A stretch of DNA of 64,000 nt from Bdellovibrionota bacterium (GCA_041740355.1 JBGSMD010000009.1:66864-130863), one strand, 5' to 3'. Counted from the stretch's first letter, positions 9,626 to 63,620 are shown. A program made the numbers and translations. Notes: a model not told the origin generated them from the sequence alone.

Positions 9626-9959
9626 CTAGGCAATCCGTCTTCGCTAGAAGTTATTTAAAGATAAGAAGTTGTTTAAATGCTACGACGCGATAAATCCGTC
9701 TTCGCTAGAAGTTATTTAAGAATTAGATGATATTTATGGGCTCTGACGAGATCTTTTTTCTTCCTCTTCGATGAAATCGAAACTATCATTAGCCAGGCAA
9801 TCCGTCTTCGCTAGAAGTTATTTAAAGATAAGAAGTTGTTTAAATGCTACGACGCGATAAATCCATCTTCGCTAGAAGTTATTTAAGAGTTGGAAGATGT
9901 TTAGAGGCTACGAAGTGATCTTTTTTTCATTTTCGATGAAATCGAAAATGAAAAAAAGA
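9626..9959. repeat. tandem direct repeat, 2 x ~167 bp
   Basis: Unit 1 is 9626-9792 and unit 2 is 9793-9959, about 90% identical. Each unit carries an internal ~30-nt direct repeat (atccgtcttcgctagaagttatttaa) and a palindromic tttcgatgaaatcgaaa hairpin. Confidence 0.85.
9921..9955 (-). terminator. rho-independent terminator of rnpB (bidirectional hairpin inside tandem repeat unit 2)
   Basis: cattttcgat-gaa-atcgaaaatg hairpin flanked by A/T tracts on both sides. Confidence 0.6.
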
Positions 9960-10362
9960 GTTAAGCGATAAGCGGAGTTTTGTAATTATGTAGTCATTTA
10001 TCTGGGAACTTTGTCACCAAAGCCCTCAAGCGACTTACCTGAGTTTGATTGTTTCCAATCAGTGCGAGCAACACATAATACTCAATTTAGTCTTGCATCA
10101 GCTAGGGTTTACCAAGCCAAAGAGTTACCCCTTTGCTGGTGAGCTCTTACCTCACCGTTTCACCCTTACTCTCCCCTTTTGGGACGCCGAAGAGAATGCA
10201 TTGTATTAGCATTATCTAGTGCGTCTCAAAAGGGGAGAGCGGTTTAATTTCTGTGGCACTTTCCCCAAGTCACCTTGAGCTGCCGTTAGCAGCTAGCTTG
10301 CTCTATGAAGCTCCGACTTTCCTCAGTAATAATTAAATTACTGCGACTACTTGCTTAACTCT
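9956..10362 (-). ncRNA. rnpB: RNase P RNA (bacterial type A)
   Basis: The minus strand contains GAGGAAAGTCGGAGCTTCATAG (the P4 5' strand consensus GAGGAAAGUCCGGGCUCCAUAG). It contains GTAAGGGTGAAACGGTGAGGTAAGAGCTCACC (consensus UAAGGGUGAAAGGGUGCGGUAAGAGCGCACC). The 3' ACAAAACTCCGCTTATCG matches consensus ACAGAACCCGGCUUAUCG, with compensatory GGAG/CUCC changes in P4. The P1 ends gagttaagc/gcttaactc pair. A terminator hairpin follows the 3' end. Confidence 0.85.
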
Positions 10363-14559: not shown

Positions 14560-14633
14560 GGCTCCATAGCTCAGTTGGTTAGAGCAGCCGGCTCATAACC
14601 GGTTGGTCCTGTGTTCAAGTCACAGTGGAGCCA
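14560..14633 (+). tRNA. tRNA-Met (anticodon CAT)
   Basis: Cloverleaf folded by hand. Acceptor ggctcca/tggagcc, anticodon loop cuCAUaa, T-arm ctgtg-TTCAAGT-cacag. Discriminator A, no encoded CCA. Confidence 0.85.
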
Positions 14634-20224: not shown

Positions 20225-20297
<73 letters not shown>

Positions 20298-22589: not shown

Positions 22590-22745
22590 GATGATTGCTC
22601 CACGCTGAATTGGTAAATGTCACTAAAAAGTAATTTGTAAATTACAAATTTTGATTAACTAATTATCTGTGAATTAATAAAAAACTGGACTGCGTCCATA
22701 CTACTGATGTTGTGGATGCCTCAAAGGTTTTACCCCTTGAGGCAC

Positions 22746-25700
22746 TTAATCACTTTTGATTTGATCAAATTCTGTTTGAAGAACTAAATCACCAGTATAA
22801 ATACCTTCGGAAACTAACAAATGATTATCCACCTCTGAAACTGAAATCTCAGATAGGGTAAAGTTAATCACATTTTGACCTACAACAACAGGTAATAATT
22901 CCTGTGAACTAACAGCAATCCAAGTTCCATCAGCTTTTTTAACTTCATCGCCTGGCTTAACTTCGATCGCACGTTTTAAGCCTGCTTTAGTTAAGACAAC
23001 GTGTTTCTGACTGATCTTAATTTTTTCCACACCATAAGTTAACTGAACCAAGGCTTCTGTTTCAGGTCCTTCTACTACTTTTAATACCTCTAATTTTTGA
23101 CCTGGGGCTCCAAGTAAATAATCACCAACTTTAACATTTTCAACAAGTACTTCTTGATTGTTAGCTAAAGTTACTTTTGTCCCTGGAGGGAAACATCCAT
23201 CAGATCCCCGATTACAAGCACATGTCCAGCAGGCATTCGGATCGGCTGACAGTTTAGTACCTGTGTAATCAGTCTGACCACCATTAGCATCAGTTACAAT
23301 AACATTACCATTAACGTCGACTCGGGTTACCCCTTGGTTAAGATTTGTATTGTTATAGAACAGATCAGCAATACCCTTATAGTTAGTAAAGTTAAATGCT
23401 GAATCAACCCCGTCACCCTTCACACAAACTATTTTTTTAGGATCACAATAATCATTATAACGATATCGACCTCGATCTACTTGAGTAGGAACAGGAACAT
23501 TATCACAAACGTTAACAACATCACATGTAGAAGAACATCCTGAGCCAGCTACACCATTATTAACTCCAAGGTCACATTTCTCTCCAAGTTCAGAACTTAC
23601 AATACCATCTCCACAATATTTCGTGATCTCACATTCTGTATTACAAATTTGCTTCGTTGGACTTGCTTGAGATCCAGGAATTAAATCAAAATCAGTTCCA
23701 TCGCAAAGTTCATTCTCATCCCTTATTCCATCACCACAATAAGGTACCTCTTCACATGTTACTGAACATCGAGAATTTGGTGTGCCATTACTTGCACCAA
23801 GATCACATTTTTCCCCTAGTTCCGGACTCAAGATACCATCTCCACAATATGGATTAATGGTACATTCATTATTACAAACTTGATTTGTCAGACTTATCTG
23901 TACTCCTTGATCTAAATAAAAGTCATCTCCATCACAAAGCTCACCTTCGTTACGAAATCCATCTCCACAGTATGGAGGAAATTCAACTCGGCAAAATTCA
24001 TTACAGGTTACCTTAGTAGGATCTACATTTAATGGGAAGTTAAGATCATCAGCGAAATCGCTGCCATCACATTCCTCATAAACTGGACAGCCAATAGCCT
24101 GACATGTTGGTTGATCTTTAGGTATGCCATTTACAATTCCATCTCCGCAGTATGGAGTCATTTCACAGTTCAGTGAACATCTAGAACCTAGTGTCCCATT
24201 TTTTACACCAAGGTCACATAGTTCTCCAAGTTCTGGACTGAAAATTCCGTCTCCACAATATAAGTTTACTTCACAAATGGAATTACATAATTGATCGGTA
24301 GTACTAACTTGAAGACCTTCAGCTAAATCAAAGTCATCACCATCACAAAGCTCGCCTTCACTCCGAATACCATCTCCACAATATGGCTCATCTTCACAGG
24401 TTAAGGAACATCTAGAACCAGGAGCACCGTTATTTTCTCCAAGATCACATTTTTCCCCTAATTCAAGATTTAGAATACCATCGCCACAATATGGATTAAT
24501 CCTACATTCTTCATTACAGACTTGATTGGCCAGACTGCTTTGAACTCCCGGATCTAAATTAAAGTCATCTCCATCACAAAGTTCCCCTTCATTTCGAATA
24601 TCATCACCACAATATGGTGGAAATTCTACTCGACAATAATCATTACAAGTTACTTTAGTGCGGTCAACATTTAATGGGTAATTAATATCATCCGAAAAAT
24701 CATTGCCATCACATTCTTCATAAACTGGACACCCAATTGCCTGGCAGGTCAGATCATCTTTAGAAACTCCATTAACAATTCCATCACCACAATACGGCTT
24801 AACTGTTACTTCACAGCTAGCGGAACAGGTTAGATTATTAAGCGGAATGTTATTAGGATTAGCATAGCCACTGAAATCATTTCCATCACAAATTTCACCA
24901 GCAGTTACGACTCCATCACCACAATAATCCTCTACAATGACAGTACAATCATCCCTACATGTTAAGGCATCCTGAGGGATATCCGCTTTATCAGGATTAA
25001 GTTCAAAGTAAACTGAAAAATCTTCACCATCGCATTCTTCGGTATCTGTGCAATAGCCCCAATCTTCTTCGAAGTTATCAACACAAAATGCTCGCTTCGC
25101 TTCTCCATCCCCACAATAAGGTCGGACATGAACATTACAACTTCCTGTACAAATTAAATTTGCTAGGGGAATATTATTTGGATTGGCATAATTACCAAAA
25201 TTTGTACCTTCGCAGATTTCATTGTCTGCTAATTGTCCATCTCCACAATATGGATCAATCTGACATTCGTTGGAACATTTTGCATTAGGATGAGTTACTC
25301 CACCAAGATCTGTTAAATCACATTCTTCAACTCCTGCCTGAATTTCACCATCACCACAATAGGTACATTTAAATCCATTTGCTCGGCAGTTTGGAACATA
25401 ACTTGCTTGACCAACTTTAATTCCATAATCACAATTCTCATTGTTAGTTTCATCTAAAAATCCATCGCCACAAACAACTACTTTGCAATTGTTGCGACAT
25501 GTCTTGCCAGCTGGAGTGTCAGTTCCATCACATTCTTCTAAGGGATTATTAACATCGTTATCTCCGCACTTAGTGCAATCCTCTCGACATCCAGTTTTAG
25601 TTTGAGGATCATTATAATCACAAGTTTCGCCTTTTGGTAAATCTATTTCTTGTGTCCAAACTCCATCACCGCAATAAGGAAGTCGGCAATCGGCACGGCA

Positions 25701-25973
25701 ATTATCCGTTAAGATCTTATTGCCATCATCACATTCTTCATCAAGTAAAATTAATCCATCACCGCAATATGAACAGGTCAGACATTCACAGTTTTTACAG
25801 CCACAAACATTAGGATCAGAAATGACTGCCGCAACAGAATTTGGATAGGCACTGCAATCTAGGTTTGAGATAACAGAATCTTGTGCGACTGTAAATGTTG
25901 GAATACTTGCTAGTATGAACAGGCTACAAAGTAACCTCACACAAAGAATAGAGAAAATTTTCGAGTTGGACAT
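22746..25973 (-). CDS. large secreted cysteine-rich repeat protein (Myxococcus-type CxxCGDG...ECD repeats, ~18 copies) with a C-terminal Hint/BIL (bacterial intein-like) domain
   Basis: Signal peptide. YCGDG(I/V)...E(L/I)CD(G/L) is reiterated through residues ~60-800. The C-terminal ~150 aa begin CFPPGTKV and end HLLVSEGIYTGDLVL, matching the Hint-domain pattern. There is extensive DNA-level internal repetition. Confidence 0.8.
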   Translation of the reverse strand: MSNSKIFSILCVRLLCSLFILASIPTFTVAQDSVISNLDCSAYPNSVAAVISDPNVCGCKNCECLTCSYCGDGLILLDEECDDGNKILTDNCRADCRLPYCGDGVWTQEIDLPKGETCDYNDPQTKTGCREDCTKCGDNDVNNPLEECDGTDTPAGKTCRNNCKVVVCGDGFLDETNNENCDYGIKVGQASYVPNCRANGFKCTYCGDGEIQAGVEECDLTDLGGVTHPNAKCSNECQIDPYCGDGQLADNEICEGTNFGNYANPNNIPLANLICTGSCNVHVRPYCGDGEAKRAFCVDNFEEDWGYCTDTEECDGEDFSVYFELNPDKADIPQDALTCRDDCTVIVEDYCGDGVVTAGEICDGNDFSGYANPNNIPLNNLTCSASCEVTVKPYCGDGIVNGVSKDDLTCQAIGCPVYEECDGNDFSDDINYPLNVDRTKVTCNDYCRVEFPPYCGDDIRNEGELCDGDDFNLDPGVQSSLANQVCNEECRINPYCGDGILNLELGEKCDLGENNGAPGSRCSLTCEDEPYCGDGIRSEGELCDGDDFDLAEGLQVSTTDQLCNSICEVNLYCGDGIFSPELGELCDLGVKNGTLGSRCSLNCEMTPYCGDGIVNGIPKDQPTCQAIGCPVYEECDGSDFADDLNFPLNVDPTKVTCNEFCRVEFPPYCGDGFRNEGELCDGDDFYLDQGVQISLTNQVCNNECTINPYCGDGILSPELGEKCDLGASNGTPNSRCSVTCEEVPYCGDGIRDENELCDGTDFDLIPGSQASPTKQICNTECEITKYCGDGIVSSELGEKCDLGVNNGVAGSGCSSTCDVVNVCDNVPVPTQVDRGRYRYNDYCDPKKIVCVKGDGVDSAFNFTNYKGIADLFYNNTNLNQGVTRVDVNGNVIVTDANGGQTDYTGTKLSADPNACWTCACNRGSDGCFPPGTKVTLANNQEVLVENVKVGDYLLGAPGQKLEVLKVVEGPETEALVQLTYGVEKIKISQKHVVLTKAGLKRAIEVKPGDEVKKADGTWIAVSSQELLPVVVGQNVINFTLSEISVSEVDNHLLVSEGIYTGDLVLQTEFDQIKSD

Positions 25974-26267
25974 GAATTGAACCTTAATATCTATGAAACC
26001 TATGAGTTAAGATTCAGATCCAGACAAATTCGATTCTTGCTTCTAAATTGATTAAAGGAATTATTTTAAGTTATCATCATTCTAGAAACAAATAGTAATT
26101 TCAAGTAGTTACATTTAGAATAAAAGCTCTTAGCTTTAAGCAGGCTTCTTAAAACATGTAACCAACTCACTGCGCAGAACATTTATCTATAAGTTCATAT
26201 TGCAATGATAATAGATGGTTACTGAAATTCTCTGGAAACAAATTCCGTTTAGTTTTCTTAGCTTTAT

Positions 26268-26957
26268 TTACTCCGTCGCTATTTCTTCTTCTATTACTTC
26301 TGGATCCAGCGTAATAACAGGTTCAACTTGAACAGCTACTGGCTGATTAATAATTTCCATTGCAGTTAAATCGCCAGTGACAATCCCATTTGATAACAAC
26401 ATGTGATTTTCAAGCTGGTCATCCCCTTCTAGCCTAATATTAAAAACTTTCTGCTTAGCTTTCACTGGTAAATACTGTACTTTTGATACTTCAGCTTTCG
26501 TTCCATTAAGATTAGCCAAGTGACCTCGTTTAACATCTCTAGCAGGAATAGTTCCTTCGTCAGTTTTAACTGGATGGGTCTCCGTAACTTTGACTGTTTT
26601 ATTACCAACAGTAATTACAACAATCGGTTCAGATTCAAAAGACTCCAGAACATTAACTACTTTAGCTATTTTTCCACTGACAGGATTTATCACTTGATCT
26701 CCAACTTGGATATCTTTAATTGCTTTCTCCAGTCCATCTCCCATCAGGATTTTGGTATCTGGCACAAAACAACTTGGCAATGCTTGTGGTGAGCCTTGTT
26801 GCGAGCTTGCCGAACCCTGTGGTGAGCCCTGTGGTGAGCTTGTCGAACCCACTGTCGAACCACCACTGCCTTCCGCAACCAACAAAATTGGAATACTAAT
26901 TAATAACAAAGTATAAATTAGGCTTTTAGATAAATTGGCAATTTGAGATAGAAACAT
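26268..26957 (-). CDS. small secreted Hint/BIL-domain protein
   Basis: Signal peptide. Ser/Gln/Gly-rich linker (GSPQGSASSQQGSPQ), then CFVPDTKILMGDG...NHMLLSNGIVTGDL, a Hint-domain pattern paralogous to the C-terminus of the upstream 1075-aa protein. Confidence 0.7.
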   Translation of the reverse strand: MFLSQIANLSKSLIYTLLLISIPILLVAEGSGGSTVGSTSSPQGSPQGSASSQQGSPQALPSCFVPDTKILMGDGLEKAIKDIQVGDQVINPVSGKIAKVVNVLESFESEPIVVITVGNKTVKVTETHPVKTDEGTIPARDVKRGHLANLNGTKAEVSKVQYLPVKAKQKVFNIRLEGDDQLENHMLLSNGIVTGDLTAMEIINQPVAVQVEPVITLDPEVIEEEIATE

Positions 26958-27202
26958 GAATTAAACCTTTAGGGCATAGATAAAAAAGTTATTAGAATTC
27001 AATCAGAACGTATTCGATTCTTGCTCCTAAAAACAAGAAATTTAGTAACTTGATTATCATGCTAGCGAATGTCAGCTTAATTACCAATAGTAAAATTTAA
27101 GCTGACTGAACGAGAACTGCTTATAACCTATTCTTTTAATCCGAAGCATAAAAAAAGTCAGAGGTTCTAAGCATCTCCGATAACTAGAAATTGTAGGTAC
27201 AA

Positions 27203-27631
27203 TTAAAACAATTTACCTATTAAATCCTTTGCTTTACCAAGAAAACTGCCCTCTCCCTTAAAGATATTTAAAATCGAGCTAAGCTTACCGCCAAAAAGTC
27301 CACTTACAAAATCTATTCCGTAATCTAGAAAACTAGGTTTTTCCACTACACTCTGATTATTTCCACCTAAAGAGTTACCATTATTAGCAGCAAGCGAATT
27401 AGTGTTGTTAACGCCACCAAAACCAATTTGTTGAAAAATATTATTGACTGTCTGCAAGATAATATTAGTTAGTCCATTTAGTAAATTATCAATAAATGGA
27501 TGCTGACACTGCGTTGAAGCAGTGGAATTTAAACTGGTACTATAATTAGTCTGTAATGGTGCTTGATTAATCATAGAAGTTTCCAATTGATAAGGAATGG
27601 CGGAGGTATTAATTGGTTTAATATCTAACAT
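27203..27631 (-). CDS. hypothetical N/G/S-rich small protein
   Basis: ORF of 142 aa with low-complexity composition. Confidence 0.3.
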   Translation of the reverse strand: MLDIKPINTSAIPYQLETSMINQAPLQTNYSTSLNSTASTQCQHPFIDNLLNGLTNIILQTVNNIFQQIGFGGVNNTNSLAANNGNSLGGNNQSVVEKPSFLDYGIDFVSGLFGGKLSSILNIFKGEGSFLGKAKDLIGKLF

Positions 27632-30631: not shown

Positions 30632-31930
30632 CTAAGATAATTCTAATATCTTTCTTAACAGCTCACTATTGTGCGAATGCCCAGTCATGTTAGCTGTAAT
30701 CTTACCCACGATAGGTCGACCAAGAAGATAAATATCTCCGATCATATCTAGAATTTTATGTCGCACGGGCTCATCAGGGAAACGAAGCTCCGAGTTGATC
30801 ACGCCATCTTCGCCAATCAACACAAAATTATTAAATCTTCCACCCTGCGCTAACCCTTGTTTCTGAAGATAATCAATATCTTTAACAAAGCCAAAAGTTC
30901 GACAGCTAGCAATTTCCCTTTGATAACTTTCAAAGTTATCCATTTTAAAAATATAATGTTGCTCCCCAATTGGTTGTTGATAATTGAGCGTGTAGTCAAT
31001 AATTAATTCTTCTGCTGGCTCTAATCGTATAAAAGCGTCCCCTTTTCGCACTTCTATAGTTTGAGTGACCATTAATTCGGCAATACTTGCTGACTGTTCT
31101 TTAATGCCTACTTCTTGAAACATTTTACAGAATTCAATTGCGGAGCCATCCATAACTGGAACTTCCTCATTACACTTAATTAATAAGTTAGTAATTCCGG
31201 CTGCGTGGAGTGCCGACATTAAATGCTCAATAGTTGACACTTGAGAGTCGGCATTTTTAATTGTCGTAGCGTATCCAGTAGTGCTGACATAGTTAACGTG
31301 CGCCGGAACAGCCTGCTTACTCCCAGGTCCAGCAAAGTGAATGCCTGAATTTTCTGGTAGTGGTTCCAAAATTAAACCTGATTTGCGACCACTGTGAACT
31401 CCCACTCCATAAAGAATGCTACTGCCTGCTAAAGTTTTCTGAACTCTTTCTTTGCCAACAAAAAAATCATTTTTAAAAACATCACTTGTAATTTGGCAAG
31501 TTTGCAAAGATAGGCTTTCAATTTCAGGAAGATGAACTGAAGAATTACTCTTACTTGTCAAAGCTTTATTAACAACTTGTTGAATAACTAGTAAGTCTAG
31601 GGGCTTTTCAATAAAATCAATGGCTCCTAACTGCGTCGCTTTTACTGCTGTGGAAATAGTAGCGTGGCCACTAATCATTACCACTGGCAAAAGACTATCA
31701 AGGCTACGAATCTTTTCTAAAGTCTCCATTCCATCCATCCCTGGCAACCAAATATCCAAGAATACTAGTGCCGGAGATTTTTCTTTAATAATTTCAAGCG
31801 CCTGATTGCCATTACTGGCATGACAACAAATCATGCCAAGATCTTCTAGGACATGACTTAAAGTCTCACAAATACTTTTCTCGTCATCGACAATTAAAGC
31901 TAAATTATTGTTGTTCATAGTAAATTTCAA
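30632..31930 (-). CDS. lpxC: response-regulator receiver domain fused to UDP-3-O-acyl-N-acetylglucosamine deacetylase (REC-LpxC)
   Basis: Residues 1-~125 form an NtrC-like receiver: LIVDDE, phospho-acceptor FLDIWLPGMDG, VVMISGH and FIEKP. Residues ~150-432 are collinear with LpxC: GVGVHSGRKS, TTIKN, TIEHLMSAL (catalytic Glu-His), EVPVMDGSA, HKILDMIGD (Zn ligands His/Asp) and TGHSHN. Confidence 0.85.
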   Translation of the reverse strand: MKFTMNNNNLALIVDDEKSICETLSHVLEDLGMICCHASNGNQALEIIKEKSPALVFLDIWLPGMDGMETLEKIRSLDSLLPVVMISGHATISTAVKATQLGAIDFIEKPLDLLVIQQVVNKALTSKSNSSVHLPEIESLSLQTCQITSDVFKNDFFVGKERVQKTLAGSSILYGVGVHSGRKSGLILEPLPENSGIHFAGPGSKQAVPAHVNYVSTTGYATTIKNADSQVSTIEHLMSALHAAGITNLLIKCNEEVPVMDGSAIEFCKMFQEVGIKEQSASIAELMVTQTIEVRKGDAFIRLEPAEELIIDYTLNYQQPIGEQHYIFKMDNFESYQREIASCRTFGFVKDIDYLQKQGLAQGGRFNNFVLIGEDGVINSELRFPDEPVRHKILDMIGDIYLLGRPIVGKITANMTGHSHNSELLRKILELS

Positions 31931-63543: not shown

Positions 63544-63620
63544 GGTGGTTGTAGCTCAGTTGGTAGAGCTCTTGATTGTGATTCAAGTTGTCGCGGGTTC
63601 GAGCCCCGTCATCCACCCCA
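63544..63620 (+). tRNA. tRNA-His (anticodon GTG) with G-1 and encoded CCA
   Basis: An extra 5' G pairs with discriminator C. Anticodon loop uuGUGau. T-arm cgggTTCGAGCcccg. A 3' CCA is present. Confidence 0.9.

Follow-up and report, generated by a model that had tools for sequence, protein, structure and literature searches.

The window analysed here, a stretch of 64,000 nucleotides (nt) from a Bdellovibrionota bacterium (GCA_041740355.1 JBGSMD010000009.1:66864-130863), holds two tandem genes on the minus strand that encode a large protein of 1075 amino acids (aa) and a small protein of 229 aa. We found that both carry a C-terminal domain of the Hedgehog/intein (Hint) superfamily. The locus belongs to a large bacterial clade with the layout of Hedgehog proteins, in which a secreted cargo is followed by a G↓CF junction (the arrow marks the predicted cleavage point) and a terminal Hint domain. 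The two genes probably encode Sec-exported precursors in which a C-terminal Hint domain of ~135 aa acts as an autoprocessing domain that would free the N-terminal cargo. The clade comprised at least 171 clusters (50% identity) at E ≤ 1e-30, was marked by a Gly-Asp...Gln C-terminus and, in many lineages, adjoined a gene for a predicted secreted partner protein; its size and this partner gene add to the interest of the pair. No name or experimental study was found for the clade or the partner. An earlier note on this DNA had correctly recognised the Hint pair, which is real, and had assigned it to the bacterial intein-like (BIL) domains; this family assignment is to be corrected to a distinct Hedgehog-like bacterial clade.

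Identification of the C-Terminal Hint Domains

Both open reading frames of the tandem pair were present on the minus strand as the earlier note described them (Table 1), and the C-terminal modules of both proteins had the boundaries first given. The modules (CFPPGTK ... LLVSEGIYTGDL in the large protein and CFVPDTK ... LLSNGIVTGDL in the small protein) shared 30% identity (E = 1e-21). Signal peptides were predicted by eye for both proteins: the N-terminus of the large protein showed a basic stretch, a hydrophobic core and an AXA-like cleavage site, and that of the small protein was basic, then hydrophobic, with an AXA-like site (LLVA↓EG).

Hidden Markov model (HMM) searches for Hint and BIL domains, proposed as a check in the earlier note, gave a mixed result. 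The small protein matched Vint (PF14623) with 31.8 bits against a cut-off of 27, the only Pfam Hint model above its cut-off, and intein_Nterm (TIGR01445) with 25.9 bits against 24.5. The Vint match was limited to ~70 residues at the start of the domain, Vint had no match in the large protein, and no VWA domain was detected in either protein by the Pfam scan. The remaining models fell below their cut-offs, namely PT-HINT (PF07591; 24.1 bits for the small protein against 27.7, no match for the large protein), Hint_2 (PF13403; 14.6 bits for the small protein against 28.4), Hint (PF01079; 20.0 bits for the small and 12.5 bits for the large protein against 29.7) and Hom_end_hint (E = 2.4e-6 for the large protein).

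Profile comparisons with solved structures were more sensitive. A three-sequence profile matched the solved BIL domain 2lwy at 3e-10. With a 63-sequence profile, 2lwy was again the best match (E = 4e-12), followed by a BUBL BIL2 domain (1.7e-10); further matches were the Prp8 and RecA inteins, Vint, Sonic hedgehog and 8w20, a 1368-aa protein whose Hint region (993-1187) lies well inside the chain. In the AlphaFold model of the Hint domain, the mean predicted local distance difference test score (pLDDT) was 63, with residues 10-125 reaching 71-88 by ten-residue blocks. The top 50 Foldseek matches listed from the Protein Data Bank (PDB) were all Hint-fold structures (probability 0.99-1.0), including BIL domains, inteins (some with a homing-endonuclease domain), Hedgehog (1at0; 1.8e-4) and Vint. 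The template modelling (TM) scores were only 0.3-0.45, because the pLDDT of the model was 63. These results showed, by sequence profile and predicted fold, that both C-terminal modules are members of the Hint superfamily, and the outcome of an unrelated beta-sandwich domain was excluded by the same profile and Foldseek matches.

The catalytic motifs were located in both domains. The block A nucleophile was the first residue of the domain (Cys927 in the large and Cys63 in the small protein), and block B (Thr/Ser-x-x-His) read TETH in the small and SQKH in the large protein. Conserved terminal residues, which the earlier note had named as a check, were thus found in part: Cys1 and the block-B His were kept, and the His-Asn was replaced by Gly-Asp. 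Both domains ended with this Gly-Asp, followed by Leu at +1, and only 13 (large) or 33 (small) residues came after. Terminal His-Asn was absent from both domains, and neither the Pfam and NCBIfam scans nor the sequence revealed a further domain after Hint.

Several known systems resemble this arrangement. Like the BIL domains of type A (PT-HINT; 2lwy) and type B (Hint_2), the domain occurs in secreted bacterial proteins with variable flanks and lacks a +1 nucleophile, and 2lwy was its best solved sequence relative. However, BIL domains are internal and precede further domains, those of type A end with His-Asn, and only 16-17 of the 63 clade members matched either BIL model at E < 0.01. The BIL assignment was therefore not upheld, as PT-HINT and Hint_2 stayed below their cut-offs and the terminal His-Asn was missing. 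Vint of the eukaryotic VWA-Vint proteins (8r2c) was matched by the small protein and by 46 of 63 members at E < 0.01, whereas the N-terminal VWA domain was lacking, the match was confined to the start of the domain and the large protein was unmatched.

Hint domains are best known from inteins and Hedgehog proteins, and in Hedgehog proteins the thioester serves for cholesterol attachment. The likeness to Hedgehog (Hog, PF01079; 1at0) lay in the secreted precursor, the final position of Hint, the Gly↓Cys-Phe junction, the TxxH block B and the presumed chemistry, in which a thioester would form and the N-terminal part would then be released. The clade differed from Hedgehog in the low PF01079 scores, in its bacterial origin, in ending with TGD...Q and in lacking the sterol/adduct-recognition region of ~70 aa, the tail in the clade having a median of 12 aa. 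Collectively, the profile and motif comparisons indicated that the domain is neither a type A BIL, a type B BIL nor an intein, and that it forms a distinct C-terminal Hint clade.

The suggestion that these domains are true inteins or intein remnants is extremely improbable. The intein_Nterm match of the small protein would agree with it, whereas no host protein, no C-extein, no terminal Asn, no +1 Cys/Ser/Thr and no homing endonuclease were found, and the domain was terminal among ~150 relatives (127 of the best 150).

Conserved Features of the Clade

To define the clade, we performed an exhaustive profile search over protein cluster representatives (50% identity clusters). The search returned 11,079 representatives at E ≤ 1e-3, 1,692 at E ≤ 1e-10 and 171 at E ≤ 1e-30. 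Among the best 150 matches, 127 had the Hint domain at the extreme C-terminus with a common ending, [H/R]-[L/M]-h-h-[S/A]-D-G-[I/V]-[V/I]-T-G-D-h-x-L-Q-x-x-L. An apparent rarity of the family, seen in a word-indexed search in which the small protein retrieved itself and one relative, was rejected as a sensitivity artefact, the profile search having found thousands. The same type of search, run with the final 256 residues of the large protein, came back empty though the full protein is in the collection, so an empty result in it is not equivalent to absence.

The residues around the junction were highly conserved. In 148 aligned members, Cys1 was present in 100%, Phe2 in 96%, Gly(-1) in 91% and Arg at -4 in 54%, and a CxxC lay within 16 residues upstream of the junction in 72/148. 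The junction was G↓CF in the large protein, which reads CWTCACNRGSDG↓CF, and S↓CF in the small protein. The block-B His and the Glu of an EGPE motif were invariant in the 63-sequence alignment (A4). At the C-terminal end of ~150 members, the Gly-Asp was conserved in 99%, and a Gln stood four residues past the Asp in 151/156. The distance from Cys1 to GIVTGD was 130 aa in most members. The N-terminal part of the ~150 members ranged from 7 to 1103 aa and began with a signal-like N-terminus in 66%. An active N-terminal cleavage site would be expected to show just such conservation of Cys1, Gly(-1) and the block-B His across unrelated cargos.

This pattern also bears on the suggestion that the Hint domains have no catalytic activity and instead fill a structural, binding or export role in proteins that stay full length. 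Most Hint models scored below cut-off, the His-Asn is replaced by Gly-Asp with loss of the penultimate His, and the small protein has neither a cargo to release nor the conserved Gln, all of which would suit a silent domain. However, maintenance of Cys1, Gly(-1) and the block-B His across unrelated cargos would be hard to reconcile with silence, and we consider this explanation distinctly unlikely.

For most clade members a precomputed Pfam match was missing, none of the members was named, and no dedicated Pfam or NCBIfam model was found for the clade or for the partner. When the 63 members were scanned singly at E < 0.01, the matches numbered 49 for Hom_end_hint, 46 for Vint, 37 for Hint, 17 for Hint_2 and 16 for PT-HINT. 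A bacterial group with a C-terminal 'Hint-like' domain had been noted by Dassa & Pietrokovski (2005) and Bürglin 2008 (PMC2362128), and Additional files 16-17 of the latter name MXAN_6253, STIAU_1829, plu1731 and members from Reinekea, Serratia and Yersinia. According to the fragments of this supplement, the group shares with the present clade the C-terminal position of the domain, some signal peptides, two conserved Cys upstream and the ending GG[I/F]LVGDxx[L/M]Q, which is the same G-D...Q signature (PMC2362128). It differs in that its domains start with S↓CM or G↓CI and its members share a weakly similar N-terminal region (PMC2362128). Because of these starts in place of G↓CF, the group looks like a sister group of the clade in a motif comparison based on optical-character-recognition fragments of the supplement rather than on a scored alignment.

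Two further sets of Hint proteins were observed in the searches. The long proteins P0006, P0020, P0023, P0053, P0089 and P0098 (842-4119 aa) contained 3-6 ordinary Hint stretches of the His-Asn type, spaced by Pro- or Gly-rich linkers and reminiscent of BUBL-like multi-Hint arrays. Loci L010, L012, L014 and L015 (samples ERZ25039533/37/51) came from an organism or organisms of 59-61% guanine-cytosine (GC) content with many Hint-family paralogs ending ...SDGIITGDIVLQGLLKERK; these sat among transposases, flagellin fragments and beta-helix proteins, with no partner gene there. L013 and L015 held two family genes each.

Proposed Processing of the Precursors

We compared the domain with characterised Hint blocks. 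The 63-sequence profile aligned to the 139-aa Mtu RecA mini-intein up to residue 137, which corresponds to two residues before the Gly-Asp, and in the HN-type match P0089 (...IAEGLVLHN) G-L-V aligned onto G-I-V of GIVTGD. With hhalign, G↓CF...T-x-x-H of the clade aligned onto G↓CF...TPAH of Drosophila Hh-C (E = 1.4e-5); against both Hh-C and the Mtu RecA intein, only blocks A and B were aligned by this program. Because hhalign covered only these two blocks, the equivalence of Gly-Asp to His-Asn rests on the hmmsearch coordinates and the HN-type matches, by which the intein His-Asn position is occupied by Gly-Asp here. Canonical splicing is not expected, because His-Asn has become Gly-Asp, Leu occupies +1 and nothing more than a short conserved tail (h-x-L-Q-x-x-L) lies beyond. 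Ligation or splicing, one of the activities the earlier note had considered for the module, is thus unlikely with 13 or 33 residues past the domain. N-terminal thioester formation is fully plausible.

According to the most likely mechanism, both precursors would be exported by Sec. Cys927 of the large or Cys63 of the small protein would then attack the carbonyl of the preceding Gly or Ser in an N-to-S acyl shift aided by the block-B Ser/Thr-x-x-His. The thioester would be resolved by water or another nucleophile, our best guess being simple hydrolysis, and the cargo would be parted from the Hint domain. In the large protein, this cargo would consist of residues ~31-926, carrying the disulfide-rich array of 18 CGDG repeats.

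Several observations weigh against autoprocessing. The pLDDT of the Hint model was only moderate (63), with the C-terminal 50 residues unreliable, and the individual Pfam Hint models were mostly under their curated cut-offs. There is no characterised precedent for the penultimate Gly, the terminal Asp or the conserved tail. In the small protein, alone among 156 members, Met takes the place of the near-invariant Gln. In an oxidising periplasm, and with 93 Cys in the large protein, Cys1 could be locked in a disulfide. The partner gene was absent from 5 of 13 informative loci (L010, L012-L015) and is not obligatory for the family. In addition, searches by locus tag, for Hint in Bdellovibrio and in reviews of the Hint superfamily found no functional study of the clade or its sister group.

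If the domain is self-cleaving or transfers its cargo, the clade would reveal how disulfide-rich surface proteins are matured or anchored in Bdellovibrio-like and other bacteria, and it would be relevant to the bacterial origins of Hedgehog-type processing. A small (~135 aa) self-cleaving tag usable outside the cytoplasm could also be derived from it.

Downstream Partner Gene

The next gene after the large gene, which lies beyond the positions given in the earlier note, encodes a 238-aa protein with a predicted signal peptide. Its conserved motifs were RCxFGDLDAI, [F/Y]ICxD....C..K, DKIYF, LGSLPL and LPxY...KC, and an alignment of five sequences (A5) contained one invariant Lys and four invariant Cys. 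Scans of the partner and its homologs found no Pfam or NCBIfam match, the PDB sequence search gave only noise, and the single-sequence structure model reached a pLDDT of 40.

At 8 independent loci, a partner homolog immediately followed a family Hint gene on the same strand. The partner was 70% identical at L003, matched at E = 3e-10 at L001 and E = 7e-17 at L011, and began 4 nt past the stop of the Hint gene at L004 and L016. By HMM, it was matched at L018 (E = 1e-34), at L017 (E = 2e-11, apparently degraded) and at L020 (E = 1e-9, cut by the contig end). These loci spanned 37% to 59% GC, and their N-terminal cargos were mutually unrelated; the genes that precede Hint in L001 showed no relationship to those in L011 either. 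The contig of L019 stops 109 nt past the Hint gene, just beyond a terminator-like hairpin, and tells little about the partner. A metagenome scan from the partner side, which used a single peptide pattern and had limited sensitivity, returned only a second copy of the L004 locus. The partner tracks the Hint domain rather than the cargo, which makes an action on the Hint domain or junction more likely than a role as a cargo-specific factor. These results suggested that the partner probably works with the Hint or junction region, possibly as cofactor, acceptor or regulator.

A small gene after a Hint gene with variable flanks also recalls polymorphic toxin systems, in which the domain would be a type A BIL or pretoxin-HINT and the downstream gene would confer immunity; the best solved relatives do include BIL domains and the internal Hint of 8w20. 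However, no toxin domain lies in the few residues past Hint, PT-HINT was below cut-off or absent, the terminal His-Asn is missing and the variable part is N-terminal. Moreover, the cargo varies and the partner stays conserved, whereas a toxin/immunity pair would show the opposite; the partner carries a predicted signal peptide, and the genomic context is housekeeping (mreB and purA). This makes a toxin system very improbable. On architecture, the classic intein and toxin/immunity readings were both rejected.

In a further explanation, Hedgehog-like adduct transfer, the thioester would be resolved by a specific nucleophile rather than by water, such as a lipid, peptidoglycan or a partner residue, so that the cargo would be covalently anchored or cross-linked. 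The conserved tail and/or the 238-aa partner would then be the adduct-recognition element. The layout mirrors Hedgehog/Hog, with the G↓CF junction, Hint last and a conserved segment after it, and the partner, with its invariant Lys and four Cys, follows Hint rather than cargo at the 8 loci. In myxobacteria, proteins with TIGR02232 repeats often end in a MYXO-CTERM sorting signal, which would suggest an interchangeable C-terminal anchoring device. On the other side, the tail has only ~12 aa against ~70 aa in the Hedgehog sterol-recognition region, no acceptor was identified, 5 loci lack the partner and its fold model is poor (pLDDT 40). We regard adduct transfer as unlikely. That the clade is the bacterial counterpart of Hedgehog cargo modification, with Gly926 moved onto lipid, the cell wall or the partner, is a rather doubtful proposal. 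In that case the TGD...Q tail and/or the partner would pick the acceptor, and the CxxC upstream of the junction might be a redox trap that keeps Cys1 inactive until the right compartment is reached. If cargo transfer holds true, Hint and partner would together make up a new system of two genes by which diverse secreted cargos are covalently displayed or delivered.

Table 1. Positions of the genes, protein regions and DNA elements at the Hint locus, counted from the first nucleotide of the window.
Feature	Position	Strand	Remarks
Large gene, 1075 aa	22746..25973	(-)	Signal peptide, 18 CGDG repeats, junction region, C-terminal Hint
Predicted signal peptide of large protein, aa 1-30, ...TFTVA↓QD	25884..25973	(-)	Read by eye from sequence
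CGDG...ECD Cys-rich repeat region, aa 67-822, presumed released cargo	23508..25775	(-)	TIGR02232 and motif count
Super-repeat copy 1 (642 nt, 214 aa, tandem), aa 392-605	24159..24800	(-)	Repeat search
Super-repeat copy 2, aa 606-819	23517..24158	(-)	Repeat search
Junction region, aa 823-926, ends CWTCACNRGSDG	23196..23507	(-)	C-x-x-C...R...G motif directly before predicted cleavage site
Large-protein Hint, Cys927-Asp1062	22788..23195	(-)	Block A CFPPGTK, block B SQKH, end GIYTGD
Large-protein tail, 13 aa, LVLQTEFDQIKSD	22749..22787	(-)	Conserved Gln four residues past Asp
Small gene, 229 aa	26268..26957	(-)	Signal peptide, Ser/Gly/Pro/Gln-rich linker, Hint, 33-aa acidic tail
Small-protein low-complexity linker, aa 29-62, replaces cargo	26772..26873	(-)	Holds two copies of 33-nt tandem repeat
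Small-protein Hint, Cys63-Asp196	26370..26771	(-)	CFVPDTK, TETH, GIVTGD; Met at conserved Gln position
Shared 20-mer TTTAGAAGCAAGAATCGAAT	26028..26047	(-)	Ends 54 nt before large-gene ATG
Shared 20-mer TTTAGGAGCAAGAATCGAAT	27012..27031	(-)	Ends 54 nt before small-gene ATG
Ribosome-binding region TTAAGGTT of large gene	25980..25987	(-)	Alignment of upstream regions
GATCTGAATCTTAA block	26007..26020	(-)	Conserved upstream of both L003 orthologs; complementary to ribosome-binding region
Candidate sigma-70-like promoter TTGAAA-17-AATGAT	26076..26104	(-)	Upstream of large gene; consensus match 9/12
Terminator-like hairpin, then T-run	22686..22698	(-)	Downstream of large gene
Second hairpin	22717-22744		Downstream of large gene
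Partner gene, 238 aa	21873..22589	(-)	Predicted signal peptide, four conserved Cys; next gene after large gene

Cysteine-Rich Repeats of the Large Protein

The earlier note had described ~18 cysteine-rich CGDG...ECD repeats of the TIGR02232 type in the large protein, and this description was borne out. The protein contains 93 Cys and exactly 18 CGD[GDN] motifs by motif count, and TIGR02232 (myxo_disulf_rpt) matched it in 10 stretches with 60.3 bits (E = 1.2e-16), above the NCBIfam cut-off of 20.8; DUF4215 matched at E = 1e-8. The 18 units are its likeness to the 'Myxococcus cysteine-rich repeat' (TIGR02232/DUF4215). Among the proteins reported to contain this repeat is a diatom adhesive-trail protein (bioRxiv 10.1101/2023.03.06.531300). 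In the literature on DUF4215 no function for the repeat was found, and no paper was found that describes a TIGR02232-type repeat fused to a C-terminal Hint. The fusion of CGDG repeats with a terminal Hint recurred in ~23 clade members.

At the DNA level, the claim of heavy internal repetition proved overstated. What remained of it was a 642-nt tandem super-repeat, whose two copies were 74% identical in protein and 75% in DNA, gapless, and which is an old duplication. A gapless repeat search of the large gene gave repeat families that were 66-87% identical, Tandem Repeats Finder reported nothing in the gene, and the longest exact DNA repeat inside it was 22 nt. Judged by the minimal homology lengths generally known for recombination, a 22-nt repeat is a poor present-day substrate. 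The proposal that the repeats are a substrate for recombinational length variation was not supported, because they are too diverged to serve well in this way today. A comparison of repeat copy number, also suggested earlier, showed a difference between species, with 18 CGDG motifs in the large protein versus 15 in its L003 ortholog. The only near-exact tandem DNA repeat in either gene was a 33-nt unit in two copies (87% matches) at 26785-26850, which encodes the GSPQGS...SSQQ linker of the small protein.

The Small Protein and Related Genomes

A genome scan found a syntenic locus in the metagenome-assembled genome (MAG) OTE_78_metabat_376 (L003) and a more distant locus in an uncultured Bdellovibrionales MAG (L004). 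The flanks of L003 matched the window in purA, the response-regulator/LpxC gene, 3-hydroxyacyl-CoA dehydrogenase, mreB, the 142-aa gene and the partner gene. Both L003 paralogs are long (924 and 890 aa) and have CGDG repeats. The large protein has its ortholog in the 890-aa protein, with the Hint region 76% identical, and the Hint domain of the 924-aa protein, which has 11 CGDG repeats, is the ortholog of that of the small protein (73% identical).

Because the L003 ortholog of its Hint domain ends a 924-aa protein, the small protein of 229 aa has lost ~780 aa of cargo, and the comparison identifies it as a paralog that lost its cargo. The view in the earlier note that the genes encode paralogous secreted Hint proteins stood as to paralogy and predicted signal peptides; it did not stand in that the small protein is a cargo-deleted derivative and not a second full member. 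At its C-terminus, the small protein is extended by 24 aa compared with the L003 protein. The catalytic Cys, TETH and the Gly-Asp were intact, and the protein may be decaying or in a new role.

Upstream Regions of the Two Genes

The earlier note had pointed to a conserved motif ~55 nt upstream of both starts and to similar ribosome-binding and start contexts, and both were observed. The shared 20-mer, which reads TTTAG[A/G]AGCAAGAATCGAAT on the gene strand, gave 2 matches versus 0.07 expected. Its two copies were 19/20 identical, and the remaining aligned upstream DNA was 48% identical. The start context AAGGTTyAATTCATG was common to both genes.

In the related genome, the motif was recovered in part. 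The exact 20-mer was not present in L003, whereas its core (AGAA[T/A]C..AAT) was common to all four upstream regions of the window and L003, as were a block TCTGAATCYTAA at ~40-50 nt before the ATG and a block TTAAGGTT.AAkTCATG comprising the ribosome-binding and start context. GAATC/GAAAC recurred at 21-nt spacing in 3 of the 4 regions. The homology of these 5' regions is a consequence of the tandem duplication, and the 19/20 block suggests either a common site for a DNA-binding protein or gene conversion. Co-regulation of both genes, as the earlier note proposed, appears plausible. There was no sign of a regulon, because the block GATCTGAATCYTAA did not recur elsewhere in the window beyond chance.

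The candidate sigma-70-like promoter would place the 20-mer ~20-40 nt into a leader of ~95 nt; the region around it had fewer sigma-70-like matches than its shuffles. A riboswitch or structured leader was rejected: the Rfam search of the upstream regions found no family, RNAalifold on the four leaders gave no consensus structure, and single-sequence leader folds were no more stable than shuffles (z 0.07 to 1.57). The element GAAUCUUAA can pair with the ribosome-binding region (9 base pairs in the large gene), a structure that showed no covariation and had no statistical support.

Two inverted repeats were observed in the intergenic DNA. A perfect 9-1-9 palindrome, AATTTGTAA-T-TTACAAATT, lies at 22632-22650 between the large-gene terminator and the partner start and resembles an operator site. 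Between the 142-aa and small Hint genes, a perfect 10-nt inverted repeat at 27071-27080 and 27097-27106 (GTCAGCTTAA and TTAAGCTGAC, 16-nt spacer) overlaps the segment aligned to the promoter-like region of the large gene.

Other Features of the Window

The gene upstream of the small Hint gene (27203-27631, minus strand) encodes a 142-aa protein rich in Asn, Gly and Ser, with no signal peptide and no Pfam or NCBIfam match. Its C-terminus is amphipathic and rich in Gly and Lys (...FGGKLSSILNIFKGEGSFLGKAKDLIGKLF). The gene was shared only with L003, where it holds the same position (54% identical), and was not found beside more distant Hint loci. The Rfam search of the window matched only a class A bacterial RNase P RNA (276 bits; 9953-10362, minus strand) and three tRNA genes on the plus strand (14560-14633, 20225-20297 and 63545-63617). 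A 432-aa reading frame at 30632-31930 on the minus strand (428 aa as called in L002) combines a receiver domain (PF00072) with LpxC (PF03331) according to precomputed L002 matches; this unusual fusion was present in L003 too.

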